DNA of 64,000 bases. Origin: a virus. Shown here in pieces: positions 19,857 to 34,750 of this stretch; the stretch's first letter is position 1; each line of letters opens with the position of its first letter. The translations under genes were made by a program, and so were the position numbers. The notes beneath the pieces were generated by a model. The model worked only from the letters and a program-made list of their open reading frames with translations. It did not search any database and was not told the DNA's origin. The stretch is from IMG/VR virus record IMGVR_UViG_3300030099_008323, positions 96,001 to 160,000 of that record. One strand, 5' to 3'.

Positions 19857-20584
19857 ACCGTACTAACTCCTCTTTTCTGCACAACAGCTGTGGCGCATTG
19901 ATTAGCAAAGTTAATTGATTGCTCTATGTTCGATGTCTCTACAAATTTAACCACCAAGGCAGATATAAATGTATCGCCTGCTCCAGATGAATCTTTAATC
20001 TCAACCTCTGGCACTGGATATAAAACATTAAGATGCTTACATCCATCTCTACTCATTGTCACAATTAGTTTGTCTTTTATATCATTAGATATAGTGTGCT
20101 TTGTCTTTTCATATTCAGTGTTGTTAATTTTTATATATTTAACATGCTCACACCAATCACCTAATATTTTTTTTGTGTCCAGGAACACACAATCATGTTT
20201 TAAAGAGATGTTTTTTATATCGTCTTCAGATAAAAATCCTTTGTTATAATCAGAAATTATAACAGCATCATAGTTGTCAAAAGATATATTATTAATGTTA
20301 GATCTTCCATATTGTTTGTCATTTTCATCAACTCTCATAAACATATGGTTCATATTAAAATCTATATATCTAGTCTTTGTAATCCCCTTCCAATTTTCAT
20401 TGGTAAGCAAATTAGCTTTAGCTCCTAATGAAGAAACATTTCTGTATACATTTCTTGCCATACCACCATTATCAACTGATTTTACAGGATTAAAAACAGG
20501 CACTGGAGCTTCAGGGCATAATCGATTACATTCGCCATAAATAAAAACGTCCCTACAGCTCTCTCCGATAACTAATATCTTCAC
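19853..20584 (-). CDS. hldA: PfkB-family heptose-7-phosphate kinase (RfaE domain I-like)
   Basis: ILVIGE..RD, PEAPVPV, ISDYNKG, DSSGAGDTF; GTG start at 20584 after GAGG. Confidence 0.88.
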   Translation of the reverse strand: MKILVIGESCRDVFIYGECNRLCPEAPVPVFNPVKSVDNGGMARNVYRNVSSLGAKANLLTNENWKGITKTRYIDFNMNHMFMRVDENDKQYGRSNINNISFDNYDAVIISDYNKGFLSEDDIKNISLKHDCVFLDTKKILGDWCEHVKYIKINNTEYEKTKHTISNDIKDKLIVTMSRDGCKHLNVLYPVPEVEIKDSSGAGDTFISALVVKFVETSNIEQSINFANQCATAVVQKRGVSTV

Positions 20585-20585
20585 T

Positions 20586-21746
20586 CTAGCCTCTAACAAC
20601 ATCGCATATGTGTTTTATTTCTTCAAATGTCAACTCAGGATAATTTGGTAAGAAAAAACCGTTTGAGTGTATCTTATTACTCATTCGGTCATTAAACCTA
20701 CCGTACCTTTCATACCAAAAAGGATGCAAGCCTAGATTTCCTGCACTGAATATTCTAGTCTCTACACCATTTTCTACCAGTCTTTCTACTATCTGCTGCC
20801 TATGTTGATTACTCTCAGCCAAAGCACCAAAGGAGATTGACACAGGTTTGTTATTAAACCAATTTTGATACTGTACATATCCGTCCAAAAGGCGCGCATA
20901 TTCTAAATGATTCTCATATCTTCTTTGTGTTGCCCAGTCAGCTTTCTTAACTTGTCTAATTCCTAAAAATGCCTGTAAGTCAGTTGACCTTAAATTAAAA
21001 CCAGGCACAAAAAATGTAAAAGGCTTATGAAAATCATCAACCCTATATTTCTTAATTAAGCGACCATATTCTTTCTCATCTAGATCTTTTGCCCAACCAT
21101 GGCTGCGCAGCATAAGCAGCATATCGTATAGCTCTTTATCATCTGTATTCACCATACCGCCCTCAATAGTTGAAAGCTGGTGGCCAAAATAAAACGAAAA
21201 CGAAGACATATCGCCAATTGTACCAACCTTGCTGCCATCTTCATACTCTGCGCCTAAAGCAGCACATGCATCTTCCAATAAACAAAAGCCATATTTTTCT
21301 TTGAGTTGTAGCAATTTCTCCTTATAATGTGGCACTCCTAATACCTGCACATATATTACAGCGTCAGGCTTTTCAGTCTTGCAAATAAATTCTAACTGGT
21401 CTAGATCAATACCAAAGGTTTCTTCATCAGCACCAACCATAATTGGCTTAAGCCCAAGTTGAATCGCTGGTGATATTGTTGTGACCCAGCCAACCGAAGG
21501 CACAGCAATTTTTTTATTCTTTATTCTGCCAGACATTAAAGCGGCCGCAACCATCAAGAGATTTGCTGAAGATCCAGAATTATTAAAAACTGCATAATCA
21601 GTGCCAATAAATTCAGCCCAATCTTTTTCTACCTGCCAAGTCAGCTCACCCTTTGTAAGTCTAGGATAGCTTTTTAACCATGTACACAGTGCATCGATAT
21701 CTTCATCATTAATTGTTTCTTTAGCTAGGGGATATTTAATGTCCAT
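20586..21746 (-). CDS. PLP/PMP-dependent NDP-4-keto-6-deoxyhexose 3-dehydratase (ColD-like, DegT/DnrJ fold)
   Basis: EDACAALG; SFYFGHQLSTIEGG has His at the Schiff-base Lys position; LRSHGW lacks the CxC Fe-S motif of RfbH/E1. Confidence 0.8.
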   Translation of the reverse strand: MDIKYPLAKETINDEDIDALCTWLKSYPRLTKGELTWQVEKDWAEFIGTDYAVFNNSGSSANLLMVAAALMSGRIKNKKIAVPSVGWVTTISPAIQLGLKPIMVGADEETFGIDLDQLEFICKTEKPDAVIYVQVLGVPHYKEKLLQLKEKYGFCLLEDACAALGAEYEDGSKVGTIGDMSSFSFYFGHQLSTIEGGMVNTDDKELYDMLLMLRSHGWAKDLDEKEYGRLIKKYRVDDFHKPFTFFVPGFNLRSTDLQAFLGIRQVKKADWATQRRYENHLEYARLLDGYVQYQNWFNNKPVSISFGALAESNQHRQQIVERLVENGVETRIFSAGNLGLHPFWYERYGRFNDRMSNKIHSNGFFLPNYPELTFEEIKHICDVVRG

Positions 21747-21747
21747 A

Positions 21748-22425
21748 TTACACCTTTATATTATATTTTTTATGTTTTGCAAAGTTCTTGCAAAGATTTT
21801 CATAAACTATTTTATCATAAAAGTCATTTTTTTTAATACTTTCATGTGGTAAATTTGTAATTTTAAATTCTGTCTCTTCACAAACTTTTTTTCCTATTAA
21901 TGCACAGTATGTGCCAAGCCAATTATCACAATAATGGTGAATAAAAGATTCAGCGAAGATTACACCATCTAAATATTTATCTATTGTGTCTCTTAAAAAT
22001 AGAGGATATCTTATTATCTGTGGCGCATTTTTGCCTCTGCCACTAAGTCCAGCTGCGTATCGAGCCCAACGAGGTATAACAAAAGAGTGATTGTTTTCAT
22101 CACATGGAGATTTTATTATAAAATCAGTACCGTTATTATATTCTATTTCCATTTTCTTTATTAAATCATTAATATTGGCCGGCGGTAGTGTAACTCCTGT
22201 TAGACAAACAATAAATTTTCCTGTAGAGTTTTTATAAAGATTATTATAACAAGACACACTAGAGCCTGTGTCTTCAAATATTTTATATTCTATATTATTT
22301 TCACAAGAAATTTTTTTTGGACTGGCAATCAATATTTCATATGAGTAATCAATTTTTATTTTATTGAGAAAATTTATTTGCCTTAAGCAATCATCCAACG
22401 AGACAATTAGAAATGATATGTCCAT
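21748..22425 (-). CDS. Divergent GT-A/GT2-like protein
   Basis: DISFLIVS...YEILI...YNNLYKNSTGKFIVCL...HHYCDNWL pattern; no clear DxD. Confidence 0.5.
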   Translation of the reverse strand: MDISFLIVSLDDCLRQINFLNKIKIDYSYEILIASPKKISCENNIEYKIFEDTGSSVSCYNNLYKNSTGKFIVCLTGVTLPPANINDLIKKMEIEYNNGTDFIIKSPCDENNHSFVIPRWARYAAGLSGRGKNAPQIIRYPLFLRDTIDKYLDGVIFAESFIHHYCDNWLGTYCALIGKKVCEETEFKITNLPHESIKKNDFYDKIVYENLCKNFAKHKKYNIKV

Positions 22426-22440
22426 GATGCCTTCAAAAAT

Positions 22441-23400
22441 CTAATCCAAAAACTCTACTATTTTAATTGGTGCTCTTTCATAAAGCCTGGTATCTGCTAA
22501 TTTAGGATTTGCATACTTTATATTAGCTTGTTCTAGGGTCTCTTGTACAGAAATAAAAAGTGTATCTCCTAGTTTAGAGTATATCTCTTTATCTAAATAT
22601 TCATATCGATAATCTTCTAGATGAGCTTTCTTTCTAGTTTTTGCATCATAATACAGAGAATTAGGATTGTTAGTAATTACACCAAGGTCAAAAGATACCC
22701 TTATACCACCTTCGTTTAAACTTGTTCTGTGCAGACATGCATGGTCAAAAACGCTTATATAGCCCATTCTAGCATATCCTAGAAATTTTTTATCATTAAA
22801 TTTTTTTAATCCCTCATCATAATTTTCTAAGGGCAAAAAGAAATCTTTATTAACGTCACATGGTTCATAAAACTCTAGTTTTGTAGAAGGATCTCCTGTT
22901 AGAGACACGCCTAGTATTGCATCTCCAACATGAGATGCCCAAGAATCAGAATGTAGCTTTGTTGTAGCTAATGGCCTTGTGTGGTCTAAATCAGCTGTTT
23001 TGCCGGACATAACTCTTACAGTGCATGGCTGCACAGCCAAAAAATTATCTAATATATTAACTTCTCTAAGTGCGGTTACAATATGTTTTTGTAGATTGTT
23101 ATACTCTACAATATTTTCTTTTTTTGGATGAAACGCGCCATTGGGGGTTCGATTAGGTAATCTTAATATTTCTTTTTCATATTTTATTAAAAATTGTTCA
23201 TCAATAGCAATTTCTTTTTTTTGTACGACAGAAAGTGCTTTTGCAATGTATTTTAATACAAGATCTGTCAAAATACCATGTGTTTGTTCAGATAATTTAA
23301 TATCAAAATATATTCCGTGATCTCTATCCAAAATACAGTCAGGTCTTAAATAATCGTATAAACTGGATCTTTTTTCTAGTATCTCTTCTCTTTTTTTCAT
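22441..23400 (-). CDS. Putative Fe(II)/2-oxoglutarate oxygenase-like protein
   Basis: LHSDSW (HxD) ... FDHACLHRT...RVSFDL. ATG at 23400 overlaps the upstream TGA (ATGA). Confidence 0.5.
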   Translation of the reverse strand: MKKREEILEKRSSLYDYLRPDCILDRDHGIYFDIKLSEQTHGILTDLVLKYIAKALSVVQKKEIAIDEQFLIKYEKEILRLPNRTPNGAFHPKKENIVEYNNLQKHIVTALREVNILDNFLAVQPCTVRVMSGKTADLDHTRPLATTKLHSDSWASHVGDAILGVSLTGDPSTKLEFYEPCDVNKDFFLPLENYDEGLKKFNDKKFLGYARMGYISVFDHACLHRTSLNEGGIRVSFDLGVITNNPNSLYYDAKTRKKAHLEDYRYEYLDKEIYSKLGDTLFISVQETLEQANIKYANPKLADTRLYERAPIKIVEFLD

Positions 23401-23909
23401 ATGAATGAGGCCTCTTGATCTCTTATAGATAAAATAGGATTGTTTATTGGCCACTTTATATTAAGCGTGGGATCATTCCACTTAATAGATATTTGATTTT
23501 CTGGGCCATTATATCTCTCAGACCACTTATAAAAAAATAAACATTTTTTACTCACACATAAATGGCCATTCAAAAAACCTGCTGGTACATAAACCATTGT
23601 AGGTTTTTGATCAGACAGGTGAAAAGTCTTTGTCTTTAAGAAAGTATCTGAATCTTGCCTAAAATCAACAACGGCAAGAAATATCTCTCCATGTAAACAA
23701 CTTATTAATTTACCAGTAATATAGTCTCCATGTAAACCTCTTAAAACATTTTTGTAAGATATTGTAATCTTGTCTTCAATAAATTTAGGTAATATGTTGC
23801 AGTCCTCATATATCGACCAAATTTCACCACGGTTATCTACATGTTTATCTAATTTTATTTCTAACAAACCATCTAAATTATGATTAATTATTTCTCTTAC
23901 ATACTTCAT
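23397..23909 (-). CDS. rmlC: dTDP-4-dehydrorhamnose 3,5-epimerase family
   Basis: DNRG, VLRGLHGD, VDFR.DS.TF, YVPAGFLNGH, IKWNDP.LNIKWP, LSIRD. Confidence 0.92.
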   Translation of the reverse strand: MKYVREIINHNLDGLLEIKLDKHVDNRGEIWSIYEDCNILPKFIEDKITISYKNVLRGLHGDYITGKLISCLHGEIFLAVVDFRQDSDTFLKTKTFHLSDQKPTMVYVPAGFLNGHLCVSKKCLFFYKWSERYNGPENQISIKWNDPTLNIKWPINNPILSIRDQEASFI

Positions 23910-24856
23910 GGAATGAATTTACACTTAATTTTATCATAACACAACTCGTCCTCATTTAAGAAAAAATACTCGTTTACCTTTTCTAGTAGACGAGATGAAT
24001 TTTTTGCAAATCCATTTTCATCATAGGCATCTGGATTGTGTGGCATAATTTTATTGCACTCTTCGTATCCAACACCGCATTCATACGCCTCTTTATCATT
24101 TATAAATGCTAGAGCATCACGGCCATAAAGTAAATTATTCCATGTATTTGAATGCTTATGTGAGTGATGAGAAAAACCTGCAGAAGCGCCGTCGATGCTA
24201 GTATGATGTCTTATTTGACGATCTGCCATTATCACCCATCTTTGAGATGATGCCGCGGCAATATAATTAAATACAGATTCTGAACAATGCGCTGCAAATA
24301 CGTCAGGCTCAATTTTATTATTACAATTTTTAAATATTTCCTTGCTAAACAAGTGAGTATGTTGATTAATAGATTTACCTATGGGGATTATATAATCATC
24401 TCCTGTAATCTGCATTTTATCAGTTGTATGTTTAAATTTAGGATCTAAAATGTCTAAAGCCTCATCAGTGTCCACTTGCAGCGCAACAATTCCATTTGGG
24501 CCAGATTTTAGACACTCATAGGATTTTGCTAGTATATCATCATCTTCAAACCAACACCCAGAATCAACATACATATAAGACTCAAACTCTCCTAGATGTC
24601 TTACAGATTCTTGACATGCCTTATTAAAAGTTATATTTACAGTATGAAGCTCTGGAGTTAGACAGTAGGATATCTGATTGCCAAATGTTTCTAATATTTT
24701 TTTAATACATTCAGGGCTATTTTTGCAAGACGACAAAACAACCCTAAAGCCATCAAAATTTTGATTTAAGAATGTTCTAATGCATTTTATATAATGCTCA
24801 GTGTTGTCTCTTCTGATGCCACATGTGTTATAAACCAATAATACTTTGTTTTGCAT
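23906..24856 (-). CDS. Putative GT-A-fold protein, paralog 1
   Basis: VYNTCGI, VNITFNKA, YMYVDSG; closely similar to 24863-25840. Confidence 0.55.
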   Translation of the reverse strand: MQNKVLLVYNTCGIRRDNTEHYIKCIRTFLNQNFDGFRVVLSSCKNSPECIKKILETFGNQISYCLTPELHTVNITFNKACQESVRHLGEFESYMYVDSGCWFEDDDILAKSYECLKSGPNGIVALQVDTDEALDILDPKFKHTTDKMQITGDDYIIPIGKSINQHTHLFSKEIFKNCNNKIEPDVFAAHCSESVFNYIAAASSQRWVIMADRQIRHHTSIDGASAGFSHHSHKHSNTWNNLLYGRDALAFINDKEAYECGVGYEECNKIMPHNPDAYDENGFAKNSSRLLEKVNEYFFLNEDELCYDKIKCKFIP

Positions 24857-25021
24857 ATTTTCCTAAGGGATAAACTTACACTTTATTGTATCATAATTTA
24901 ATTCTTTATTTGACAAAAATAAATATTTTTTTATTACACTTTGTAAATTATCTATGTTCTTGCATAGGCCCTCTTCATCATAGGCATCTGGATTGTGTGG
25001 CATAATTTTATTGCACTCTTC
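24017..25021. repeat. 48-bp perfect direct repeat (24017-24064 and 24974-25021) within the tandem paralogs
   Basis: ttcatcataggcatctggattgtgtggcataattttattgcactcttc is identical in both copies; flanking bases differ. Confidence 0.9.
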
Positions 25022-25840
25022 ATACCCTAAACCTGCATCTGCAGCTAATTTATTATTAACAAAATCTACCGCGTCTCTTCCATATAGTAAATTATTCCAA
25101 GAGTTATTTTTAACTAATTCACCACTCTTATTTTTAGATTCTACTCTATGCGTAAATCCTGACGAGGGGCCATCAACAGCTTTCAAATGCCTAACCTGAT
25201 AGTCGGCCATTATAGCCCATCTTTTGCCAACTGATGCTGCAATGTAATTCAGCACAGACTCTGAACAAAAGGCAGCAAAAACATCAGGATAAAGCTTCTT
25301 ATATTTTTTAAATATTTGATTACTAAAAACAGCAGTGTGCTGATTAACAGATGTTCCAATTGGCACTACTAGATGCTCGCCAGTAACTTGGATATGCTTT
25401 GATTCGTATAAATATGGATAGCCTAAATTTTCTAAGCATTCATCTGTATCGGTCTGTACCACAACAATACCATAATTATTTTCAACTAAAGTTTTATGAG
25501 ATAGACTGAAAATATCATTTTGGTCATCGAAAGTACATCCAGAATCAACGTACATATACCCATCAAATTCACCAAACTTCTTTACAGATTCTTGAACTGC
25601 CTTGTTGAAAGTTATATTAACGGTATGTAATTCTGGTGTCAAAGAATAAGATATCTTATTACCAAATTCTTGATAAATTTTCTTAATGCAATCAGTACTA
25701 TTTTTACAAGAAGATAATACTACTCTACAGTTATCTAAATTTTGAGCTAGCATACTTTTTAGTGAGGATATATACCAATCCGTGTTATCGCCATTTATTC
25801 CACATGTGTTATACACTGCTAATATTTTATTATTATTCAT
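24863..25840 (-). CDS. Putative GT-A-fold protein, paralog 2
   Basis: Same motifs as 23906-24856. Confidence 0.55.
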   Translation of the reverse strand: MNNNKILAVYNTCGINGDNTDWYISSLKSMLAQNLDNCRVVLSSCKNSTDCIKKIYQEFGNKISYSLTPELHTVNITFNKAVQESVKKFGEFDGYMYVDSGCTFDDQNDIFSLSHKTLVENNYGIVVVQTDTDECLENLGYPYLYESKHIQVTGEHLVVPIGTSVNQHTAVFSNQIFKKYKKLYPDVFAAFCSESVLNYIAASVGKRWAIMADYQVRHLKAVDGPSSGFTHRVESKNKSGELVKNNSWNNLLYGRDAVDFVNNKLAADAGLGYEECNKIMPHNPDAYDEEGLCKNIDNLQSVIKKYLFLSNKELNYDTIKCKFIP

Positions 25841-27033
25841 ATAAATTCTGGATGTTTAATTTTTGAAACAATTTGTTTTTGCGCATCTAAAAGCTTTTGC
25901 TTATCTAAATTATCAATATCTTTATACAATGTCCACATCATTTTATTGCTCTCATGTGGCTTACAAAGCTGTGTACATTTAGAGAAACACTCAACATTAT
26001 CGATTAAATGCATAACTTTTTGTCTTTTATTAACATTTTGCCAAATATCTTTAAAACTACTGTCGTACAATCTACCATAGCTATATTGCTTATACCCTCG
26101 ATGATTTGTACAAACATAAACATGGCCGTCTGCGCCAACGCAGGGTTGGATTTGCGATCCTAAACATTTTTTATAGTTTCTTCCATATAGAGATGGATCA
26201 TTTTCTAAATCTTGCAGCTTGTACCCATTAATTTGATATTTATCCCCTAATATTTCTTTAGCCTGCTTGAGCAAGGGCTCTACCTCTGTATTCCAAAAAT
26301 CAATCTCTCTTTGTACACCCTCTTCTCTTTCACGATTCACAACCTCGGGTTTAAACTGGCAGTAGTCAACATCAAATTTACTAAAGTATTTAGCAAAATC
26401 TACAATCTCACTATAGGTGTCAGGAGTTATAACAAAACCAACACCTATAGTTATTTTTTTACCTTTATTATTATTAATTTGTACTAGTTTAGCTAAGTTA
26501 TCAGACATCTTTTGCCAGCCTTGATTTTTTCTAGCTCTTCTAACTGAATTATATGTTTCTGGGGTTCCAGCATCAATCGAAAAGCGCACCCAAGTCATAT
26601 TTTCAACAAATGTATCAAATAGATCCCACCTGTCAAGTAAAACACCGTTAGTGAAAATACCCATTTTAACAGAATTAGCTCCTAAAAATTGAATAGCCTC
26701 TTTCAAATGTCTATTAAGTGTTGGTTCTCCGCCGCCGGTCCAATTTACTGCCCTAACTTTCATGTCAACAAAGTCTCTGCAAAGATCCATTAGGACCTTG
26801 CGGGGCATAATTGATCGATCAAAAGTTTCTAAATTTTTTGATTCTGGAAGGTGTATATACGAGGATATACAAAAATAGCATCCGTGATTGCATGCATTGC
26901 TAGGATCAACCTCCACTAAAACAGGATTTGAATAGCCTGTTTCTAAATGTTCTAAAGCTCTGTCGACATTAGCGATTATCTTTGCTTGGGGGTTGAAAAT
27001 AAGAGAATCATTTAATAAATCTTCAATTTTCAT
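25837..27033 (-). CDS. Radical SAM enzyme with SPASM/twitch domain
   Basis: CNHGCYFC, TGGGEP, C-terminal CLGS...DGHVYVC...CFSKCTQLC. Confidence 0.9.
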   Translation of the reverse strand: MKIEDLLNDSLIFNPQAKIIANVDRALEHLETGYSNPVLVEVDPSNACNHGCYFCISSYIHLPESKNLETFDRSIMPRKVLMDLCRDFVDMKVRAVNWTGGGEPTLNRHLKEAIQFLGANSVKMGIFTNGVLLDRWDLFDTFVENMTWVRFSIDAGTPETYNSVRRARKNQGWQKMSDNLAKLVQINNNKGKKITIGVGFVITPDTYSEIVDFAKYFSKFDVDYCQFKPEVVNREREEGVQREIDFWNTEVEPLLKQAKEILGDKYQINGYKLQDLENDPSLYGRNYKKCLGSQIQPCVGADGHVYVCTNHRGYKQYSYGRLYDSSFKDIWQNVNKRQKVMHLIDNVECFSKCTQLCKPHESNKMMWTLYKDIDNLDKQKLLDAQKQIVSKIKHPEFI

Positions 27034-27937
27034 TTTTATTTTTTAGCCACTTTAAAAAATATTCGGTAGGATCTTTAAAATATTCACGTATCACGTCGTC
27101 AAAATATCTTTTAGCTTTTTCAGCTCTTTGTTCCAACAATTTGTGGGGTATATTATTTATCTCCTGAAGACATTCTTTAATATATTCTGGGCTATTATCC
27201 TCCTTACATATTCTATAAACAAAACTAGTATCGTAAGTATCTTCACCAACTAAAAAATAATCATAATCTGATATTAATATTGGTACCCTATTATAATAGC
27301 AGCTCTCTAGCAACCTTACACTATCAATTCCAGATCCCCTAGGACACAAAGATATGCTACTTTGCAACATAGTATCGATGTAATCTTTTTGTACCTTTGA
27401 TCCAATTTCAGATGGACCAGACCAAGTCCTATTGATATGAAGATTCTTATCTAAATCTGAATGATGAAGTGCATGGACCATCATTGCTCTAACAATATGA
27501 TTTAAATATCCACGAAAACCAAAACTTTTTTTCCTGGGAAACTCATACTGTTCATTTTGATTATCAATAATATCCAATAAAAGATGAGAAAAAGTTGGTC
27601 TGGCAAAAAGATATTTAATATCTGAGTAAATCTTAAGTGGACCCATAGTTGTGATGATACAATTGTGAAGCCAATTAGGTATTTGCATTCCACCTTCACC
27701 TTCTATATCACATATATGCTTATCTTCATTTCCGTCAAAATATTCAAAATCAGATTTTTTAAAATTTTGATATTGATCATTGGGGATCTGTCCCATATAA
27801 AAATAATCAGCTTCTTCCGGGCTGACTATTGTACAATGATCTCTAATTCCTTGCTCACTTAATGGCACCGTATTATAATAGATTTTAGTATCATCATGCA
27901 CATGTTTTTTTGCATTAGGATATACGTATAATTTCAT
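27023..27937 (-). CDS. Exostosin-like (GT47) glycosyltransferase
   Basis: SISLCPRGSGIDSVRLLESCYYNRVPILISD matches the exostosin FCLCPxG...R..E..x.GCIPV motif. Confidence 0.75.
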   Translation of the reverse strand: MKLYVYPNAKKHVHDDTKIYYNTVPLSEQGIRDHCTIVSPEEADYFYMGQIPNDQYQNFKKSDFEYFDGNEDKHICDIEGEGGMQIPNWLHNCIITTMGPLKIYSDIKYLFARPTFSHLLLDIIDNQNEQYEFPRKKSFGFRGYLNHIVRAMMVHALHHSDLDKNLHINRTWSGPSEIGSKVQKDYIDTMLQSSISLCPRGSGIDSVRLLESCYYNRVPILISDYDYFLVGEDTYDTSFVYRICKEDNSPEYIKECLQEINNIPHKLLEQRAEKAKRYFDDVIREYFKDPTEYFLKWLKNKNEN

Positions 27938-27939
27938 AT

Positions 27940-29808
27940 TTATTCCATCGATTCGCTAACATTAAAAATACTAGGCATTGGTGGATCCTCAGAAATAGGC
28001 AGAGGCTCTACAATCATATTTTCATAAAATTCTTCTCTAGGAAGATAAGGGTACATATCCTCTACTGGAGTACTCCAGCCAACTATTTTTGGCTCATATG
28101 TATGGTATTCATGGCAATTAACGTCACAAACCATTGGGCCATCAAACTCTAGAAATTGTCTTATCTTGTCTCTAACTTGTTCATATGTATCCTCTCCAGT
28201 TATAGTCATTGTAGGTACTCCATATGCGTCTGCAATTGCAATGAAGTTTGGCGGCGCATATCCTTTTGGGCCACATGCTTCACTTCTTCCTTCAAAGTTG
28301 ACTTCTTGAAATGCTTTCGTAATTCCGTATATATGATTATTTAAAATAACTGTTTTAAGCTTAATATTGTAATTTAAAAGAGTCTGAAGCTCTTGAATAT
28401 TCATATTAAACCCACCGTCTCCAATAACACAAACAACATTTTGATCTTCGCTAGCAGCGAATACGCCTCCCATTGCTCCAGCAAAAGAAAAGCCCATAGG
28501 TGAATTTCCGTTATTTGTATAATATCTTTGACCGGTCTTTGTTTTAAAAGCGTGGTTCAACACAACAATATTACCGCCACAGTCTCCTACCAACACATCA
28601 TTGGATTTCATTTCCTCTGACAATATTCTTGCAAAAGCATATGGATGAACAGAGTCACCCTCCTTAAACATATCTTCCGTGACAGGATCATACTTCTCCT
28701 TCCAATCTTTTACTTTAGTCATCCACTTAGAGAAGTCTGGCAAATAAGAGCCGGCAGTAGAGTTATTGCAATATGCTAGCCTTTCTCTTAAGAGCTTTAT
28801 AAAAAGCTTAGCATCTGAATGAATACACTCATCGAATGGAAGCTGCTGCCATTTTTTAACTAAATTAGCTTTGTCAATGTCAACCATATATTTTTTTGCT
28901 TCTCTAGCAAAAGTACTAGGCTCACCGCCAGTTATCCTACCAGATATTCTACTTCCAATAGCTAATATTAAATCAGAATTCTGTATACCAAAATTTCTTC
29001 CAGCGCCGCCGTATGTGCCGATTCTACCACCATAATATTCAAAATCAGAACAAACTATGTCAAGAGCGTTCCAAGTTGGAAAACAGGGTATCTGTAGTTC
29101 TCTAGCTAACTCCATAAAATCTTCATTTGCATCAGCAAGGCCCACGCCTGCTCCAATCATCAAGCAAGGCCTTTCAGAGTTTTTTAAATCTTCTATAAAC
29201 TTATCAATCTGAAAATTAATCTTGTCGACATTAAAAACTGGCTGGTTAATCTCTTTGTTGTAAGACCTAAGAGAATCAACCTCAACTTCCATTTTTGCCA
29301 CATCAATTGGTAAATCAATTAGTACAGGGCCCGGTCGTCCAGTAGTTGCAATGTGAATTGCCTTTTCCAGCTCATACCTGATGTCCTCTGGGTTTTCTAC
29401 TAGTTTAGCATATTTTGTAATTGGTTCTACAATACTGACTATATCAGTCTCTTGAAATCCTATTTGCCTAATTGACTCATCAGGTCGCATGTATTGCGTC
29501 TTGATTTGACCAGTGATAAATACACATGGAACTGTATCATAAAAACAATTGCCAATTGGTGTTACAAAGTTCATACCACCAGGACCACTGGTTGCAATAG
29601 ACACGCCATATTTTCCAGAAACCTTTGCATAGCCCTCTGCGGCAAAGCCACCAGCTTGCTCATGCATAACAGCAATATATCTGGTTTTATCATTTCTGGT
29701 GAACGCATCAATCAAATGACCATTAGCTGCTCCATAAACTACAAAAACTTCTTTTATACCATCTTCTGCTAAGTGATCAATAACATAATCAGCAACTTTT
29801 TTTTTCAT
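27940..29808 (-). CDS. Acetolactate-synthase-like ThDP-dependent enzyme (YerE-like context)
   Basis: HEQAGGFAAEGY, SGPG..N, GRPGPVLIDLP.D, ThDP motif GDGGFNMNIQEL...ILNN. Confidence 0.92.
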   Translation of the reverse strand: MKKKVADYVIDHLAEDGIKEVFVVYGAANGHLIDAFTRNDKTRYIAVMHEQAGGFAAEGYAKVSGKYGVSIATSGPGGMNFVTPIGNCFYDTVPCVFITGQIKTQYMRPDESIRQIGFQETDIVSIVEPITKYAKLVENPEDIRYELEKAIHIATTGRPGPVLIDLPIDVAKMEVEVDSLRSYNKEINQPVFNVDKINFQIDKFIEDLKNSERPCLMIGAGVGLADANEDFMELARELQIPCFPTWNALDIVCSDFEYYGGRIGTYGGAGRNFGIQNSDLILAIGSRISGRITGGEPSTFAREAKKYMVDIDKANLVKKWQQLPFDECIHSDAKLFIKLLRERLAYCNNSTAGSYLPDFSKWMTKVKDWKEKYDPVTEDMFKEGDSVHPYAFARILSEEMKSNDVLVGDCGGNIVVLNHAFKTKTGQRYYTNNGNSPMGFSFAGAMGGVFAASEDQNVVCVIGDGGFNMNIQELQTLLNYNIKLKTVILNNHIYGITKAFQEVNFEGRSEACGPKGYAPPNFIAIADAYGVPTMTITGEDTYEQVRDKIRQFLEFDGPMVCDVNCHEYHTYEPKIVGWSTPVEDMYPYLPREEFYENMIVEPLPISEDPPMPSIFNVSESME

Positions 29809-29887
29809 TTATTCCTCTATTGTATACCATGCATCATTATAAGCTCTTTTTTAAAATGCTTAAATTCTTCCGCGTCAAATTTTTTAT

Positions 29888-30826
29888 CTACTTTTTTTTT
29901 ACTGTAGTTGTTTCAGGGGTGGCGCTATGATTCGTTGGAAAGCCCTGATCAGTCTCATAAACAACCTCATCGTGCTTCCAATTACCACCACCTAAGAGCT
30001 TCTCTAGTTCTTCCTCTTTAATAGCATAAAAGTTCTCTTCTGAGGGAAACTCACCAGACCTAACCTCCTCTGCATACTTAGTTAAAGCAGATTGCATCAT
30101 CTGGCCGGCCTCACAATATCTTTTAACAAACTTTGATTTAAATTCCCAAAACAAACCCATTAGATCATGAAAGATTACTAATTGGCCATCAACTTTATCT
30201 CCTGCGCCAATACCATAAACAGGAATATTAAGCTCGCTAGCAATCATATCAGCTGACTCGCGGGGCATGCCCTCTAACAATAGAAAAGAGCAGCCGGCTT
30301 CTTGTAGTTCTAGAGCTTGCTGGAGGATAATTTCAGCTTGTTTAGCTGTTTTTCCCTGCACTCTATAGCCGCCTAGCTTTGCTCTGGTGTGAGGTGTAAG
30401 GCCTAAGTGGCTCATAACCATAATACCAGCATCTGCAATTGCTCTAATTCTCTCAGTCATTGCACCTTCGACTTTAACACAGTCCATACCAGCTCGAACA
30501 AAACGACCAGCATTATGAACTGCTTCTTCATTAGATATCTGATATGACATATAAGGCATATCACCAATTAAAAATGCGTTTTTAGCACCTTTCGAGACTG
30601 CCTCACACGAACTAATCATTTGGTCCATACTAACAGGAATAGTTGTCTTATAACCTAATGTAGTCATGCCCAAAGAGTCGCCTACCAAAATACAGTCTAC
30701 ACCTGCACCATCAGCGATTCTAGCTTGCGGGTAATCATAAGCTGTAGTAAGAACAGTTTTTGTATTTTCTCTCTTGTGTCTTCTCAATCTGAGAATAGTT
30801 ACTTTATTTTTATCATCTGCTGGCAT
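29888..30826 (-). CDS. panB: Ketopantoate hydroxymethyltransferase family
   Basis: TAYD, LVGDSLG, IGDMPY, VKVEG, HLGLTP, LLLEG, GIGAG..DGQ.VIFHDL.G. Confidence 0.93.
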   Translation of the reverse strand: MPADDKNKVTILRLRRHKRENTKTVLTTAYDYPQARIADGAGVDCILVGDSLGMTTLGYKTTIPVSMDQMISSCEAVSKGAKNAFLIGDMPYMSYQISNEEAVHNAGRFVRAGMDCVKVEGAMTERIRAIADAGIMVMSHLGLTPHTRAKLGGYRVQGKTAKQAEIILQQALELQEAGCSFLLLEGMPRESADMIASELNIPVYGIGAGDKVDGQLVIFHDLMGLFWEFKSKFVKRYCEAGQMMQSALTKYAEEVRSGEFPSEENFYAIKEEELEKLLGGGNWKHDEVVYETDQGFPTNHSATPETTTVKKK

Positions 30827-30827
30827 T

Positions 30828-32351
30828 TTAATCTCCTAAAATTTTTCTTTTGAGACTTATTTTAGCAGTCTCAATAACGTTTTGTTCAGCTCTTTTTCCA
30901 AATTTTTCTCTTAAAAGCTGTAAGTATTTTGGATTAGTATGGTATTTTGTCCAGGCTTCATCTCGAAACTTTAAAATTTGTGCAGCCGTAAGACTATCTG
31001 TTGGTAAATTTTGTGTATCGTAAGAATGCTGACTGTAACCAGTATAACTATCCGGCAATTTCATGCCCTTACTTTTTGCTTGTATATATAAAGGACTACC
31101 TGGGTATGCCATAGCTGTATAAAAATTAACCATTTCTGTATTTGACTCCATGGCGAAGTTTAGCGTATATTCTAAAGACTCCATAGTGTCCATAGGTAAT
31201 CCAAAAATATAATTTGCCGCTATGTTTATTCCAGATGATCTCATGTTGTCCATTATATCACCAATCTTAACATCTTTAAAGTTATCTTTATGAACTTCTT
31301 TACGTAAGATTTGGTCTGGATTTTCTATGCCTAGGCCGAGCCAATTAACTCCTGCCTTTTTAAGAGTGTCCAGGTATTTTGGCTTGCAGGTATCAATCCT
31401 AGAATATGCCCAAATATTAAAATCATATTGTCTCTCTATAATCATTTGACATATTTTTTCAAAATGACGAGGGTTTAAAACAAAAAGTTCATCTGCGATC
31501 TTAACGTTTTTAACACCTAGGCTTGCAATATAATCAAATTGATTAATTATAAATTCAGGTGACCAATACCTCCATACGTTACTTTTATCGCTAGCTACTC
31601 CAATTGATGAGTCTGTTCTGTTGATGATGTTAATCATGCAGAAAGAGCATTTATATGGACAACCTAAACTGGTATACAAAGCAGCAAAAGGCTCTTTCTC
31701 TGTATTGTTGGACCATGAATGCCATCCTGCTGTTCTGTACTTTTTTATATCAGGGAGCAAATCCCATGCCATTCCTGGTAAATCTACTTCAAGTTTATTC
31801 TTGGGCACTATTGATTGTGGCTTGTTTAAAACGATGCCTTCTTCTGTCTTGTATCCCAGGCCATCTACTTTTTTTAGCTGCACTTCATCAGAAAAATTAG
31901 TTACTTGAAGAAAATTACTTATTGTATATACACCTTCATTTTGACATATATAGTCAACACAGCTCTCTGATAAGACTTCTCTTGGTAGCGCTGCGACGTG
32001 GCCGCCGACGAAGAGCACATTTGTATTGGGGCTAATTTTTTTTAATTCTTGAGCTGTAGCAATTGCACCCTCCATATTTTGAGTAGATGCACTAGGCTGC
32101 TGACCATACACAACAAAACAAACAACTCTCGAATTAATATCTTTAATTTGTTGTGCTGCTGACAAATAATCTAATCTTTCAGCTTCGCAGTCTAATATAG
32201 CTACACCAAAACCTTTTATACGACAATGGTTGGCTAACATCGCAGCCCAAATTGGAGGCTCAATAGCAGAGTGTTTGTTGCTCAGATCTTGATATATCGC
32301 CTTTGAGGCATTTGGGTGCACAAATAATATGTCTAAATTTCTCATATTCAT
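30828..32351 (-). CDS. Cobalamin-dependent (class B) radical SAM enzyme
   Basis: N-terminal B12-binding region (PPIWAAML...GGHVAALP) and GCPYKCSFC. Confidence 0.9.
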   Translation of the reverse strand: MNMRNLDILFVHPNASKAIYQDLSNKHSAIEPPIWAAMLANHCRIKGFGVAILDCEAERLDYLSAAQQIKDINSRVVCFVVYGQQPSASTQNMEGAIATAQELKKISPNTNVLFVGGHVAALPREVLSESCVDYICQNEGVYTISNFLQVTNFSDEVQLKKVDGLGYKTEEGIVLNKPQSIVPKNKLEVDLPGMAWDLLPDIKKYRTAGWHSWSNNTEKEPFAALYTSLGCPYKCSFCMINIINRTDSSIGVASDKSNVWRYWSPEFIINQFDYIASLGVKNVKIADELFVLNPRHFEKICQMIIERQYDFNIWAYSRIDTCKPKYLDTLKKAGVNWLGLGIENPDQILRKEVHKDNFKDVKIGDIMDNMRSSGINIAANYIFGLPMDTMESLEYTLNFAMESNTEMVNFYTAMAYPGSPLYIQAKSKGMKLPDSYTGYSQHSYDTQNLPTDSLTAAQILKFRDEAWTKYHTNPKYLQLLREKFGKRAEQNVIETAKISLKRKILGD

Positions 32352-32352
32352 C

Positions 32353-33279
32353 TTAATAGTTTGCATACCAAGGGCTTTCAATTAGTGAAAAAGCTTTTTT
32401 AAGTTGTACGATTCCGCCGTCTAAGTCAAACCTACAATTAAATCCTTTATCATAAAATTTCTGACTGCTAACAATATAATCTCTGGTATCCGGATCACTA
32501 TTGAACTCAGCCTTCATAATTTCTATAGGAATGTATTTTGAAACTTTTTCTGCTAACTGAAGTTTATTCATATTAATAGAATCGTTGCCAACATTATAAG
32601 TTTCGTTTTTACATTCTTCCCAATTGTCAACTACAAATTTAAATGCTGAACAAACATCATGAATGTGAACATAATTTCTCATGAACTCACACTCATATAA
32701 AACTAAAAGTCTATCTCTAAGAGCACGCAAAACAAAATTATTGACTAGTAGATCTGATCTCATTCTAGAACTAGGCCCAAAAACAGTTGCCAATCTAAAT
32801 GTCACATAATTTTCTACACCCATAAAGGCCTTTTCTGCATCGACTTTTGTCGTACCATAGAGAGTCAAAGGATTGAGTGGTGATTCCTCAGTACAAACTC
32901 CATCACTTTTTGATCCATATCCAGAATTTGTGCAAGGATAAACAACCATTTGATGTTTAGACTTATTCTCTGCCAACCAAACATTTGCATCTAAATTTAT
33001 TTCTTTTGCATCTCTTGGATTATCTCTGCACAAAGGAAACCCAACCAAAGCGGCCAAGGGTATTATTACATCTGCACGGGAAACTAACTTTTCTAAACGT
33101 TTATAGTCTCTAACATCCCCGCGCTCGAAAACAAAATTAGTATGGTTGGTATATCTCAATAGGGACGTAGCATCATACATTAAATTATCATATACTACAA
33201 CTCTGTGCCCGTCTTTTAAAAAATAATCAACTAGCTCGCTGCCAATATATCCTGCTCCACCAGTTATCAATATATTCAT
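32353..33279 (-). CDS. NAD-dependent epimerase/dehydratase/4-ketoreductase
   Basis: TGGAGYIGS, YGTTK, FRLATVFG; ATG at 33279 after GAGG. Confidence 0.9.
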   Translation of the reverse strand: MNILITGGAGYIGSELVDYFLKDGHRVVVYDNLMYDATSLLRYTNHTNFVFERGDVRDYKRLEKLVSRADVIIPLAALVGFPLCRDNPRDAKEINLDANVWLAENKSKHQMVVYPCTNSGYGSKSDGVCTEESPLNPLTLYGTTKVDAEKAFMGVENYVTFRLATVFGPSSRMRSDLLVNNFVLRALRDRLLVLYECEFMRNYVHIHDVCSAFKFVVDNWEECKNETYNVGNDSINMNKLQLAEKVSKYIPIEIMKAEFNSDPDTRDYIVSSQKFYDKGFNCRFDLDGGIVQLKKAFSLIESPWYANY

Positions 33280-33280
33280 C

Positions 33281-33853
33281 TTAAACCTCTTTTCTTGCAA
33301 CTACTCTTATTATTACTGGATCTTGATCTTTATATACAGCTAAATTTGTTGCTTCCTTATAATAACAAATTTCAAATTGATTTTGAAGTAGTTTTTTAAT
33401 AAAGTTAGACCCATTAATTGTTCTTCTATAATGGTCATCAATAAAAGAATTATCTTTGTCTGATCTAAATTCAAAAGCAATATAATTAGAAAATTGCAAT
33501 ATTTGATCTTCTATATCTTCAGTTACAGAGTGAATACCAAAGCGACAATATACAAGATCATAGTTACTAGGCTTTTTAAATTTTAAAAAATCATTTATAT
33601 CTGATTTTATAAAAGTTATGTTTTTACTTGAAGTTATTGTTGAGGCATAATCAACTGCAGTAATAGAGCTACAATGGTGTCCTAACACAAAAGTATCTCT
33701 ACCATCACCGCAACACAACTCAAGCACTCTCATGTTTGTTAAATCAATTGTATCACAGACAAACTTACAAAAGGAAGAAGACAACGTAAATGCTGCCGTC
33801 TCACTATAATATTTTTTCCAATATTTATTTGGGTTGTTGCCAATCTTTTCCAT
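33281..33853 (-). CDS. Class I SAM-dependent methyltransferase
   Basis: VLELCCGDGRD, TAVDY, YDLVYCRFGIHSV. Confidence 0.85.
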   Translation of the reverse strand: MEKIGNNPNKYWKKYYSETAAFTLSSSFCKFVCDTIDLTNMRVLELCCGDGRDTFVLGHHCSSITAVDYASTITSSKNITFIKSDINDFLKFKKPSNYDLVYCRFGIHSVTEDIEDQILQFSNYIAFEFRSDKDNSFIDDHYRRTINGSNFIKKLLQNQFEICYYKEATNLAVYKDQDPVIIRVVARKEV

Positions 33854-34463
33854 AATATCTCTCAAAAAATTTAATAGGTTTATTAATACATTTAAAGTTT
33901 TTTTGTTTGAAATTAATTGTTTTCATAGGGAACATTTCATCTTTTTTAAGATTATAAAAACTTCTGTGTCCCTGTTGTAAAAAATCACTTTCTGGTAAAT
34001 TCTCATACTCATAAAGATCAATAAAAACATCTTCTTTAACAACAGAATATAAATTTGAAAACTCATTTCTTATTAGTTTATAGCCATTAGTGTTGTGTAA
34101 GTAATCTAATTTTTGTATTACTTTATGTTCATCTTTTTTAAAATAACCAAAATCAACATCCTCATCATGCTTAATCAAATCATCATCTCTTATCATTCCT
34201 AATAAAGTACCAAACATTGGCCAAATATCAATATCTTTCGAAAAATAATCGTAAAACTCAAACATAATTTCTAACGCATGTTCGCGAAAACCATCATTGC
34301 TAAAGTTTTTAAAATTTCTTCTATCTAGATGTATTTTATAAATGGTACCAACTGATTTTAGCTTTCCCTGTAGATCGCACCCCTCATAAAGCATATGTCG
34401 ACATATTGATTTTGTGCGCCATGTATGTGCTGGGTCTCTACCAGATATCTCTTCATCACTCAT
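33825..34463 (-). CDS. licD: LicD/fukutin-family nucleotidyltransferase
   Basis: FGTLLGMIR..DLIKHDEDVDFG...FIDLYEY...YYGKDWQQP. Confidence 0.85.
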   Translation of the reverse strand: MSDEEISGRDPAHTWRTKSICRHMLYEGCDLQGKLKSVGTIYKIHLDRRNFKNFSNDGFREHALEIMFEFYDYFSKDIDIWPMFGTLLGMIRDDDLIKHDEDVDFGYFKKDEHKVIQKLDYLHNTNGYKLIRNEFSNLYSVVKEDVFIDLYEYENLPESDFLQQGHRSFYNLKKDEMFPMKTINFKQKNFKCINKPIKFFERYYGKDWQQPK

Positions 34464-34750
34464 CTAATAATCCTTCCCAATATCCAATCTCTAAACATCA
34501 ACATATCGCTTAATTTAGCCATAATAGGACTAGAAAATGCGGCCGGCTTATTCTTCTCAAAGAAATAATGTCCCGTCCAAGCAAAAGGATAAACAACAAA
34601 TGGTATCAAAGGAAATAGATACCACATCCAATTATATAGAACATATAGTGTGAAAATTATAGTAGTTAATTGACCAGCGACATGCAGACGTCGATTCCAC
34701 ACATTTGTGTGCAAAGTTAAATAATATTTGTAATATTCTGTCAATTTCAC
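34460..34750 (-). CDS. DUF962/Mpo1-like membrane protein
   Basis: YLTLHTNVWNRRLHVAG...FAWTGHYFFEKNKPA.F. Confidence 0.8.
   Translation of the reverse strand: MKLTEYYKYYLTLHTNVWNRRLHVAGQLTTIIFTLYVLYNWMWYLFPLIPFVVYPFAWTGHYFFEKNKPAAFSSPIMAKLSDMLMFRDWILGRIIR

Follow-up and report, generated by a model that had tools for sequence, protein, structure and literature searches.

Which product do a predicted NDP-4-keto-sugar 3-dehydratase, a ThDP-dependent carboligase, a PanB protein and two radical SAM enzymes make when encoded side by side in one viral operon? The question is raised by a window of 64,000 nucleotides (positions 96,001 to 160,000 of the IMG/VR virus record IMGVR_UViG_3300030099_008323), originating from an uncultured ocean phage. 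An earlier note on this DNA had described the cluster as virus-borne, which is borne out by the tail fibres, endolysin and PhoH of the replicon and by the IMG/VR record itself (186,103 bp, estimated complete). All seven genes named there were found at their places; they belong to a single dense run on the minus strand, with genes overlapping or ≤79 nt apart. The end given there, 33279, corresponds to an internal ATG of an extended SDR. The glycan cluster is, however, wider than was described, extending over 17944-39295 (~21 kb) with 24 genes, including six glycosyltransferases (Table 1). Promoter and terminator scans of the cluster remained at chance level, and the operon call is based on the gene packing and on the gene order conserved in relatives. 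We agree that this gene set has no match in any described pathway. Judging by the predicted enzymes, it is reasonably probable that the cluster represents a phage pathway to a deoxy sugar that is nucleotide-activated and carries an acyl branch at C4, and that it includes the soluble glycosyltransferases installing this sugar.

Table 1. Predicted genes of the glycan cluster (window positions)
Feature	Coordinates	Strand	Remarks
SDR_A, extended SDR, 288 aa; candidate HldD-like 6-epimerase or YerF-like/C4 ketoreductase	17944..18810	-	
Small cupin, 127 aa, heptose module	18810..19193	-	Cupin_2
Small HAD phosphatase, 114 aa, presumed GmhB-like role	19135..19479	-	weak match, TIGR01689 capsule phosphatase
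HldC-like heptose-1-phosphate adenylyltransferase (HldE domain II)	19476..19856	-	TIGR02199 152 bits, cut-off 181.5; CTP_transf_like
HldA-like PfkB sugar-phosphate kinase (HldE domain I), shortened	19853..20602	-	TIGR02198 120 bits, cut-off 345; PfkB
ColD-type PLP/PMP NDP-4-keto-sugar 3-dehydratase (predicted)	20586..21746	-	DegT fold; His189 replaces Schiff-base Lys
Unknown protein, 225 aa	21748..22425	-	weak homologues in loci L001 and L002
Putative Fe(II)/2-oxoglutarate oxygenase	22441..23454	-	true start probably residue 19
RmlC-like NDP-4-keto-sugar 3,5-epimerase (predicted)	23397..23909	-	PF00908 133 bits; TIGR01221 114 bits, under cut-off
GT-A fold glycosyltransferase u316	23906..24856	-	model pLDDT 87
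GT-A glycosyltransferase, tandem paralogue of u316	24863..25840	-	58% identical to u316
Radical SAM enzyme with SPASM domain	25837..27033	-	CNHGCYFC
GT47/RXYLT1-like glycosyltransferase	27023..27937	-	PF24785 35 bits
YerE-like ThDP carboligase, proposed sugar C4-branching enzyme	27940..29808	-	three domains, GDGG...NN
PanB (ketopantoate hydroxymethyltransferase), proposed 2-oxo-acid donor supplier	29888..30826	-	above both NCBIfam cut-offs
Cobalamin-binding (class B) radical SAM enzyme	30828..32381	-	B12-binding and Radical_SAM domains; CPYKCSFC
SDR_B, extended SDR, candidate NDP-heptose C4-dehydrogenase (Cj1427-like)	32353..33300	-	PDB 6vo6/6vo8
SAM-dependent methyltransferase	33281..33865	-	specific to window; absent from all related loci
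Weak LicD-like phospho-substituent transferase	33825..34463	-	specific to window
Mpo1-like (DUF962) protein	34460..34750	-	PF06127 88 bits
Conserved 133-aa protein	34747..35148	-	seen in viruses only
GT2 glycosyltransferase	35157..36776	-	
GT4 glycosyltransferase	36769..38043	-	
GT4 glycosyltransferase	38045..39295	-	

Dehydratase, carboligase and radical SAM enzymes

The best solved-structure match of the DegT-fold protein is ColD (2gms, 188 bits), and its length (386 aa) is near that of ColD (390), unlike that of E1 (437); its five Cys in all are scattered. His189 (FGHQ) aligns with ColD His188, the column being fixed by the H188N and H188K mutant chains, and the DegT-family genes of viral loci invariably encode His at this position (61/61 and 15/15), as do 41/48 of those in cellular loci. 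Among the neighboring products, the 225-aa protein gave zero matches in Pfam and NCBIfam searches. The putative oxygenase possesses invariant H168-x-D170, H242 and R252-x-S254 (alignment A2), while its assignment to Fe(II)/2-oxoglutarate oxygenases is a lead only (Atlas lead to PhyH; structure model pLDDT 43). A Foldseek search with the model of u316 matched SpsA, TarP and PcManGT (E about 1e-8, probability 1.0).

By its sequence, the ThDP enzyme is YerE-like and not an acetolactate synthase. Its best solved matches are JanthE (8rph, 304 bits) and 5ahk (272 bits), the latter being presumably PpYerE, with plant AHAS at 240, and it scores under every AHAS equivalog cut-off. The phylogeny against IlvB and YerE that the earlier note had called for, run with FastTree, placed the enzyme in a 131-row clade (support 100, stem 0.69) apart from AHAS, with six true AHAS outside it, including Salmonella IlvB/G/I, Staphylococcus IlvB and Acinetobacter IlvI; for a Duganella member of the clade, JanthE was the best match. 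JanthE, from Janthinobacterium sp. HH01, is a characterised YerE-like enzyme that accepts ketones; its ThDP motif, CDG, is unusual (PMC12188165), in contrast to the canonical GDGG of the phage enzyme. JanthE and 5ahk, both characterised as carboligases of this ketone-accepting type, share the three-domain architecture with the phage protein, being its distant relatives by bit score. The C-branched deoxysugar logic proposed for the locus, a ColD-type 3-dehydratase acting with a YerE-like carboligase, is supported.

In a 41%-identical relative on a cellular contig, the gene order is GT2-MT-GT2-ThDP-SDR-DegT-SDR. Fusions to GNAT, HAD or methyltransferase domains are seen in other relatives, and cupin-ThDP fusions occur as well. 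The GNAT, HAD and methyltransferase fusions, as well as the promiscuity of carboligases such as JanthE, would suit a scheme in which the ThDP enzyme, PanB and the radical SAM proteins make a small hydroxy acid or acyloin, O-/N-linked to the glycan or released, rather than a ring C-branch. We regard it as improbable, considering the near-universal co-occurrence with His-type 3-dehydratases, the source of the 3-deoxy-4-keto acceptor in the yersiniose scheme, and the absence of an acyl-activating or acyltransferase gene from the cluster.

The participation of the two radical SAM enzymes in a branched-sugar pathway appears plausible, because both recur with the ThDP clade and one relative (P0148) is a ThDP-rSAM/SPASM fusion, whose rSAM half is homologous to the phage SPASM protein (26% identity, E 3e-38). 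In relatives, the B12 radical SAM gene lies immediately upstream of PanB or ThDP. The C-methylase role assigned to its product in the earlier note is, however, unproven: HpnJ (137 bits, far under cut-off) is its best named family, with BchE also among the best, and we take neither of these to be a methylase.

PanB and its pairing with the ThDP gene

PanB passes the TIGR00222 and NF001452 equivalog cut-offs and matches the housekeeping enzymes of E. coli (1m3u, 195 bits) and M. tuberculosis (1oy0, 189 bits) over the full length. Like these, it retains every signature motif intact (GDS, DMP, VKVEG, HLGLTP, LLE, GIGAG), presumably the keto-acid carboxylate and metal ligands. Unlike them, the phage copies possess a conserved C-terminal tail of ~45 aa (FYEIK-EELEKLL-WKYE), lack accompanying panC, panD and panE, and in viral contigs are always paired with a ThDP gene. 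Indeed, neighborhood analysis, also suggested previously, revealed recurring clusters with an adjacent same-strand ThDP gene at 80/80 sampled viral PanB loci, near which all DegT-family genes encode His-type 3-dehydratases. The ThDP partners form two lineages, mutually only ~33% identical, in the second of which PanB is flanked by the ThDP gene on one side and an RmlD-type SDR on the other. Conversely, 16/23 viral ThDP loci have PanB directly upstream of the ThDP gene; the relatives examined did not include any PanB-ThDP fusion.

Viral panB has been interpreted as a vitamin-B5 AMG (PMC8940887), the JGI annotation of ThDP relatives is acetolactate synthase, and family models cannot separate the phage PanB from the housekeeping one, all of which would agree with ordinary auxiliary metabolic genes boosting host valine, pantothenate and CoA. 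Such a function is very improbable and largely refuted by the context, as the ThDP enzyme falls outside the AHAS clade and both genes reside inside a glycan operon. Moreover, a search of the complete phage genome revealed no AHAS small subunit, IlvC, IlvD, PanC or PanE, and the lack of these and of GmhA argues against a vitamin or valine module. Genes tallied in ocean viromes under 'pantothenate' or 'acetolactate synthase' thus probably belong to glycan synthesis.

In the earlier note, the ThDP enzyme was thought to add a pyruvate-derived acetyl to an NDP-4-keto-3,6-dideoxyhexose, the branch being then hydroxymethylated by PanB and/or C-methylated by the B12 radical SAM enzyme. The gene set is identical under this order, and an alpha-hydroxy ketone might in principle chelate the PanB metal. 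Furthermore, in phage loci L012-L015 and L017 the same ThDP clade occurs with PanB absent, and PanB is therefore dispensable for the ThDP step; this asymmetry is expected of optional late tailoring and also fits PanB acting after branching. Nevertheless, we know of no PanB active on a non-acid substrate, and both the retained keto-acid motifs and the equivalog scores speak against this order, as does the fact that the phage lacks both a 4,6-dehydratase and a hexose-1-P nucleotidyltransferase. The only system tested has the partner acting ahead of the ThDP step: the ErwI aldolase makes a 4-hydroxy-2-oxo acid, which ErwE couples to a ketone, refusing pyruvate (PMC9306805). Considering this precedent, PanB more probably makes the 2-oxo-acid donor, as ErwI does for ErwE, than modifies the branch later, and the order of the earlier note seems rather unlikely.

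Heptose module and sugar scaffold

Of nucleotide-sugar routes, the phage encodes only one, for a heptose (split HldE, HAD phosphatase, cupin), and the cupin, HAD, HldC and HldA genes showed all-or-none co-occurrence in 18 loci. GmhA was not found in the phage genome; the small cupin, which marginally matches a lyxose/mannose isomerase as well as the cupin part of cupin-ThDP fusions, is possibly an aldose-ketose isomerase standing in for it. Since HldA and HldC miss their equivalog cut-offs, the activated sugar and its nucleotide are uncertain. Only two SDRs are encoded in the entire genome. SDR_A (Pfam Epimerase, 115 bits) has YSWVK without the TDE dehydratase motif, its best NCBIfam match being heptose 6-epimerase (77 bits, under cut-off), while SDR_B matches 6vo6/6vo8 over its full length (297 bits). 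We take 6vo6 to be the GDP-heptose C4-dehydrogenase Cj1427.

As the heptose route alone is encoded, a 4,6-dehydratase was not found and SDR_B matches 6vo6, a 3-deoxy-heptose fits better as the predicted scaffold than a 3,6-dideoxyhexose. The latter had been derived from GDP-Man, CDP-Glc or dTDP-Glc, and this part of the earlier proposal is not upheld, the whole genome containing neither an NTP_transferase (RmlA/ManC-type nucleotidyltransferase) nor a recognisable 4,6-dehydratase. Against the heptose scaffold counts the fact that Cj1427 acts on GDP-alpha-heptose, whereas the HldE route yields ADP-beta-heptose; other NDP-sugars, or a 4,6-dehydratase, could also come from the host. GDP-3-deoxy-4-keto-heptose was made in vitro by Cj1427 and a ColD-type C3-dehydratase (PMC10680097).

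Proposed pathway and known systems

All steps of the pathway are inferred from gene identity, family placement and linkage. Host sedoheptulose-7-P would be isomerised by host GmhA or the phage cupin, phosphorylated by the HldA-like kinase, relieved of its C7 phosphate by the HAD protein and nucleotidylated by the HldC-like enzyme to NDP-heptose. SDR_B would then oxidise C4, as in Cj1427, and the ColD-type enzyme would strip the 3-OH, giving NDP-3-deoxy-4-keto-heptose, which the RmlC-like enzyme could epimerise beside the ketone. PanB would hydroxymethylate a host 2-oxo acid with methylene-THF (in the simplest case 2-oxoisovalerate to ketopantoate), and the YerE-like enzyme would decarboxylate this product and attack the C4 ketone with the resulting acyl anion, so that C4 becomes an acyl-branched tertiary alcohol. 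The branch carbonyl may be reduced by an SDR, as by YerF, with tailoring by the B12 and SPASM radical SAM enzymes, the putative 2OG oxygenase and the methyltransferase. Finally, six soluble glycosyltransferases would assemble the glycan, with virion proteins as possible soluble acceptors; soluble assembly is suggested because none of the cluster proteins has a predicted transmembrane segment.

In the yersiniose A pathway of Yersinia pseudotuberculosis (DdhA-D, YerE, YerF), as proposed for the phage, a His-type PMP 3-dehydratase leads to a 4-keto-3-deoxy NDP-sugar, which a ThDP enzyme acylates at C4 before an SDR reduces the product. The yersiniose dehydratase is E1, whereas that of the phage is ColD-like, without an Fe-S cluster or E3 partner; the phage also lacks the CDP-glucose pathway, and its donor is probably not pyruvate. 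To our knowledge, the yersiniose cluster contains neither PanB nor radical SAM enzymes.

The capsular heptose enzymes of Campylobacter jejuni (Cj1427, HS:5 C3-dehydratase, C3/C5 epimerases, C4-reductases; PMC10680097) convert an NDP-heptose to 4-keto, 3-deoxy and epimerised forms, as is proposed for the phage, which similarly combines a ColD-type PLP 3-dehydratase with an RmlC-type epimerase and the 6vo6-matching SDR_B. Activation in C. jejuni follows the GDP-alpha-heptose route (GHMP kinase and HddC), in contrast to the HldA/HldC type of the phage, and C4 is reduced there with no carbon branch made, whereas a C4 branch is proposed here.

The closest logic is found in the erwiniose, caryophyllose and gastriose clusters, covered by a 'unifying scheme' for acyl-branched sugars (Steitz et al., 2022; PMC9306805). 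In erwiniose-type clusters (ErwI/ErwJ-ErwE-ErwF of Pectobacterium atrosepticum; MyGE), as in the phage, a YerE-like ThDP gene stands beside that of a maker of a functionalised 2-oxo acid and adjoins genes for an SDR reductase and a 3-deoxy-4-keto NDP-sugar. What the partner makes serves the ThDP enzyme as donor, as it would in the phage scheme. In the phage, the donor maker would be PanB, a methylene-THF hydroxymethyltransferase, instead of a pyruvate aldolase, and the scaffold is probably a heptose oxidised by a C4-dehydrogenase instead of CDP-4-keto-3,6-dideoxyglucose. Two radical SAM enzymes are added, and the carrier is a phage.

Gene cluster and the affinity of the ThDP enzyme

The virus record that holds the window is complete (186,103 bp), and the window itself carries phage traits: tail-fibre genes, an endolysin, giant ORFs and a PIN-PhoH protein, for which no close cultured relative was found (identity to anything in the phage set did not exceed 40%). 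The glycan genes form a run of 24 genes, in which neighbours overlap or lie at most 79 nt apart; scans for promoters and terminators along it gave signal at chance level. The earlier note had proposed a candidate pathway in which a ColD-like enzyme, a ThDP enzyme, PanB and a B12 radical SAM enzyme produce a branched 3,6-dideoxyhexose. Every gene it named was recovered in the window by domain or family matches, and the cluster turned out to be about 8 kb longer than the interval proposed there, extending both ways. A methyltransferase gene and a weak LicD-like gene, inserted between SDR_B (one of the two SDR genes of the cluster) and an Mpo1-like gene, occur only in this phage and are absent from all related loci.

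Features of the window considered in the analysis
Feature	Position	Strand	Remark
Large ORF	3-10685	minus	at least 3561 aa; no Pfam or PHROG match
Large ORF	10718-12142	minus	474 aa; no Pfam or PHROG match
Large ORF	12135-16148	minus	1337 aa; no Pfam or PHROG match
Glycan gene cluster	17944-39295	minus	24 genes
SDR_A	17944-18810	minus	
ColD-like gene (DegT fold)	20586-21746	minus	
u337	22441-23454	minus	
u316	23906-24856	minus	
u325	24863-25840	minus	
SPASM radical SAM	25837-27033	minus	
ThDP gene	27940-29808	minus	
PanB	29888-30826	minus	
B12 radical SAM	30828-32381	minus	
SDR_B	32353-33300	minus	
Methyltransferase and weak LicD-like gene	33281-34463		
u133	34747-35148	minus	
tRNA-Ile	44535-44611	minus	anticodon TAT
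Two tail-fibre-like genes	50595-54222	plus	opposite strand to the cluster; local GC island, 0.45 vs ~0.33

The ThDP enzyme possesses the Pfam N, M and C domains, the invariant E50 and the motif GDGGFNMNIQEL...NN at residue 463 (canonical GDGG...NN); since the domains, the catalytic Glu and the GDG...NN motif are common to AHAS, they do not discriminate by themselves between an AHAS and a sugar-branching carboligase. The protein scored below every AHAS equivalog cut-off, and its best matches among solved structures were JanthE (8rph, 304 bits) and 5ahk (272 bits), the latter of which we take to be PpYerE, vs 240 bits or less for plant, yeast and bacterial AHAS. JanthE is a YerE-like, ketone-accepting carboligase (PMC12188165), and more than 150 clusters (50% identity) outscored it in an exhaustive search. 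The phylogeny that the earlier note had suggested was computed with FastTree on 143 sequences. Six of these were true AHAS, taken from records of Salmonella, Staphylococcus and Acinetobacter; the others came from the window, 22 viral loci and named genome loci or were representatives, and the YerE, ErwE and MyGE sequences were left out. In this FastTree analysis the phage enzyme appeared within a 131-row clade on a long stem with a support of 100; all six AHAS fell outside. JanthE was the best match of a Duganella member of the same clade. The genomic context includes the 3-dehydratase and NDP-sugar genes, without ilvN, ilvC or ilvD. A relative with 41% identity, located on a cellular contig, is arranged as GT2-MT-GT2-ThDP-SDR-DegT-SDR-acetyltransferase-C-methyltransferase, and the nearest cellular copy (62% identity, a 473-kb Nitrospiraceae contig) as SDR_B-like ... 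ColD-like ... B12-rSAM-ThDP. Judging from these sequence data, the window enzyme is assigned as a predicted YerE-like carboligase, separate from AHAS.

No cultured phage in the GenBank phage set carries this enzyme; the matches there (at most 30% identity) are AHAS of bacterial origin, from records that are mislabelled or contaminated. Natural fusions of YerE-like enzymes (P0148, P0175, P0232, P0177, P0191 and P0266) have radical SAM/SPASM, cupin, GNAT, HAD hydrolase and methyltransferase partners and could serve as Rosetta-stone clues to the tailoring steps.

PanB and the order of steps

PanB exceeded the curated cut-offs (TIGR00222, 282 bits vs 207.6; NF001452, 320 bits vs 272) and matched the M. 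tuberculosis and E. coli enzymes over the full length (195 and 189 bits) with all signature motifs kept. In the PanB alignment, A5, the catalytic and metal-ligand motifs are invariant; presumably, their residues are the keto-acid carboxylate and metal ligands, the roles being assigned after the E. coli PanB structure. A pantothenate-synthesis context (panC/panE) was not found in the complete phage genome, where searches for the AHAS small subunit, KARI, IlvD, PanC and PanE (ApbA) were all negative.

The neighbourhood analysis that had been proposed revealed a recurring PanB-ThDP pair: among 23 viral ThDP loci, 16 have PanB as the immediate upstream neighbour of the ThDP gene, amid variable sugar genes, and reciprocally a ThDP gene is directly adjacent, on the same strand, in 80/80 viral PanB loci (the best 80 IMG/VR panB). 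Eighteen of these best 80 loci have the order PanB-ThDP with the ThDP type of the window, and 62 have the order ThDP-PanB with a second YerE-like lineage, 27-37% identical to the window enzyme. In the second-lineage loci an RmlD/epimerase-type SDR comes after PanB, and panB thus sits between the yerE-like gene and the gene in the yerF position. PanB adjacency was seen in one of 80 cellular relatives, a marine Bacteriovoracales single-cell genome; no PanB-ThDP fusion was detected among the long ThDP relatives, the N-terminal extensions of which are cupins or have no match. The sole 'phage' PanB match, that of Microcystis phage MaAM05, was set aside for its panB-panC-suf housekeeping context; this locus (MW495066.1, 254-273 kb), with panB, panC, sufBCDS and iscU, looks like bacterial housekeeping DNA. 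The phage PanB copies (window and related loci L001-L023) share a conserved C-terminal extension of ~45 aa (FYEIK-EELEKLL-WKYE), absent from the E. coli, M. tuberculosis and Bacteriovoracales proteins, which may be a docking element.

The PanB and ThDP steps could follow each other in either order. In the earlier note PanB was thought to hydroxymethylate the finished acyloin branch; alternatively, it would supply the donor, as happens in the erwiniose cluster, where the aldolase ErwI gives 4-hydroxy-2-oxopentanoate and ErwE couples this product to a ketone, refusing pyruvate (PMC9306805). The asymmetry of the pair (PanB always with ThDP in the best 80 viral PanB loci, ThDP sometimes without PanB) is compatible with both orders. 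Because of the ErwI/ErwE precedent, because ketopantoate, the PanB product, is a 2-oxo acid, and because the presumed carboxylate and metal ligands are kept, donor supply would be the probable function of PanB, given that the two steps are coupled, and hydroxymethylation of the finished branch is less favoured.

The sugar scaffold

The DegT-fold protein matched ColD best (2gms, 188 bits, vs 130 bits for E1), and its His189 (FGHQ) aligns with ColD His188, in the column altered in the H188N and H188K mutant chains. With this His, five scattered Cys and a ColD-like length (386 aa), it belongs to the ColD subtype, which bears out the 3-dehydratase with His for Lys and no Fe-S motif claimed previously; no E3-type reductase was found among the Pfam matches of the cluster. 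As to the 3-DEHYDRATASES link, His occupies the His189-aligned position in 15/15 and 61/61 viral DegT-family genes near ThDP or PanB, and in 41 of 48 cellular ones. This pairing follows the logic of the yersiniose pathway, in which a 3-deoxy-4-keto acceptor is combined with a ThDP branching enzyme.

The sugar had been proposed to be a 3,6-dideoxyhexose derived from GDP-Man, CDP-Glc or dTDP-Glc. No RmlA/ManC-type nucleotidyltransferase was found in the complete phage genome, the only SDRs of which are the two in the cluster; neither has a 4,6-dehydratase as its best match, and SDR_A lacks the TDE motif. The ColD-like gene is followed directly, on its downstream side, by genes of an HldA-like kinase, an HldC-like adenylyltransferase, a small HAD phosphatase and a cupin; HldC (152 bits vs a cut-off of 181.5) and HldA (120 bits vs 345) are the best-scoring families of the respective domains, at sub-cut-off scores. 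All four genes of this heptose module occur within 2 kb in 18 loci, and none of them in 56 loci. The phage genome gave no match to GmhA (SIS_2); the cupin, which has the motif PKGWGFE and marginally matches a lyxose/mannose isomerase, may stand in for GmhA. Alternatively, the pathway may draw on the GmhA of the host.

SDR_B matched 6vo6/6vo8 over the full length (residues 9-315, 297 bits); 6vo6 is presumably Cj1427, the GDP-heptose C4-dehydrogenase, with which the molecule name given by the depositor agrees. Cj1427 and a ColD-type C3-dehydratase were reported to yield GDP-3-deoxy-4-keto-heptose in vitro (PMC10680097). Considering this precedent, the SDR_B match, the four-gene Hld-like module and the lack of a nucleotidyltransferase or 4,6-dehydratase, the most economical reading of the acceptor is a 3-deoxy-4-keto-heptose, which we regard as moderately probable, given that neither HldA nor HldC reaches its cut-off. 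The evidence thus points to a heptose, and the hexose route from GDP-Man, CDP-Glc or dTDP-Glc is disfavoured.

Tailoring, transfer and relation to known branched sugars

The B12 radical SAM protein displays class B features (PF02310, 54 bits; PF04055, 62 bits; CPYKCSFC at residue 241), its best named families being HpnJ and BchE, with no named subfamily cut-off reached; to our knowledge, neither of the two is a methylase. In many relatives, cellular ones included, its gene is the direct upstream neighbour of PanB or ThDP, and in loci L013-L015 it takes the position of PanB; in addition, one relative is a ThDP-rSAM/SPASM fusion, the rSAM half of which is homologous to the SPASM radical SAM of the window. 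This positional and fusion evidence suggests that both radical SAM enzymes belong to the pathway. In a Nanoarchaeota MAG and a Nitrospinaceae single-cell genome, relatives of the ThDP gene stand amid a SPASM radical SAM gene and B12 radical SAM genes, of which there are as many as four.

Six transferases are encoded in the cluster: the tandem GT-A glycosyltransferases u316 and u325, a GT47-like, a GT2 and two GT4 enzymes. For u337, the AlphaFold model was unusable (pLDDT 43), and its designation as a putative oxygenase therefore relies on the conserved HxD...H...RxS pattern and an Atlas lead to PhyH; sequence-profile searches against solved structures gave no match for the u316 family, u337 or u133. 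Since no transmembrane segment was predicted in any of the 24 cluster proteins, nor any match among them to flippase, polymerase (Wzx/Wzy) or initiating phosphoglycosyl transferase families, assembly likely takes place on a soluble acceptor. The three large ORFs are directly downstream of the cluster; it is our speculation that these giant proteins are candidate virion or fibre proteins and glycan acceptors.

DNA hypermodification was also considered as the target, owing to a 58-kb viral contig (L025, JGI 3300025087, 6907-16809) in which a 945-aa ThDP enzyme with an unassigned C-terminal extension is encoded among the replication genes of a smaller phage. The presence of six GT-A/GT-B transferases together with a full nucleotide-sugar pathway speaks for a glycan, and hypermodification was therefore rejected for the window. 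Near the L025 gene there are also two radical SAM genes (one of them of the B12 type), a class I/II aminotransferase and a GT2-like gene; the setting is unlike that of the window and could relate to another target.

Viral panB has been reported to rank first in abundance among the vitamin-class auxiliary metabolic genes, which was read as evidence for a viral boost to pantothenate and CoA (PMC8940887). This interpretation of viromes is affected by the link of panB to a predicted sugar-branching enzyme in all of the best 80 viral loci sampled. The ThDP family has thousands of members among ocean metagenome proteins (at least ~68% identity), and the glycan of so abundant a family would therefore be common in the ocean and may play a part in the recognition between phage and host. 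Biocatalysts for tertiary alcohols are being sought among YerE-like enzymes, and a ThDP clade whose natural donor is bulky would be of use there.

In its fullest form, which we consider unlikely, the proposal is that the phage makes a 3-deoxy-heptose so far unknown in nature, with a ketopantoate-derived five-carbon branch at C4 (3-hydroxy-2,2-dimethylpropanoyl, later reduced), remodelled by two radical SAM enzymes and put on the phage's own virion proteins by a fully soluble, membrane-independent glycosylation. On this fullest reading, the abundant 'panB' and 'ilvB' of ocean viromes would stand for branched glycans made by viruses and not for the metabolism of vitamins or amino acids. We found no paper on viral YerE-like enzymes or viral PanB-ThDP pairs. 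The proposed pathway would bring viruses and a heptose scaffold into acyl-branched sugar biosynthesis, as represented by yersiniose, erwiniose and caryophyllose, along with a new way to the side chain, for which PanB takes the place of the aldolase; compared with the published 'unifying scheme' for such sugars, the donor-forming enzyme, the probable heptose scaffold, the radical SAM steps and the viral carrier are new.
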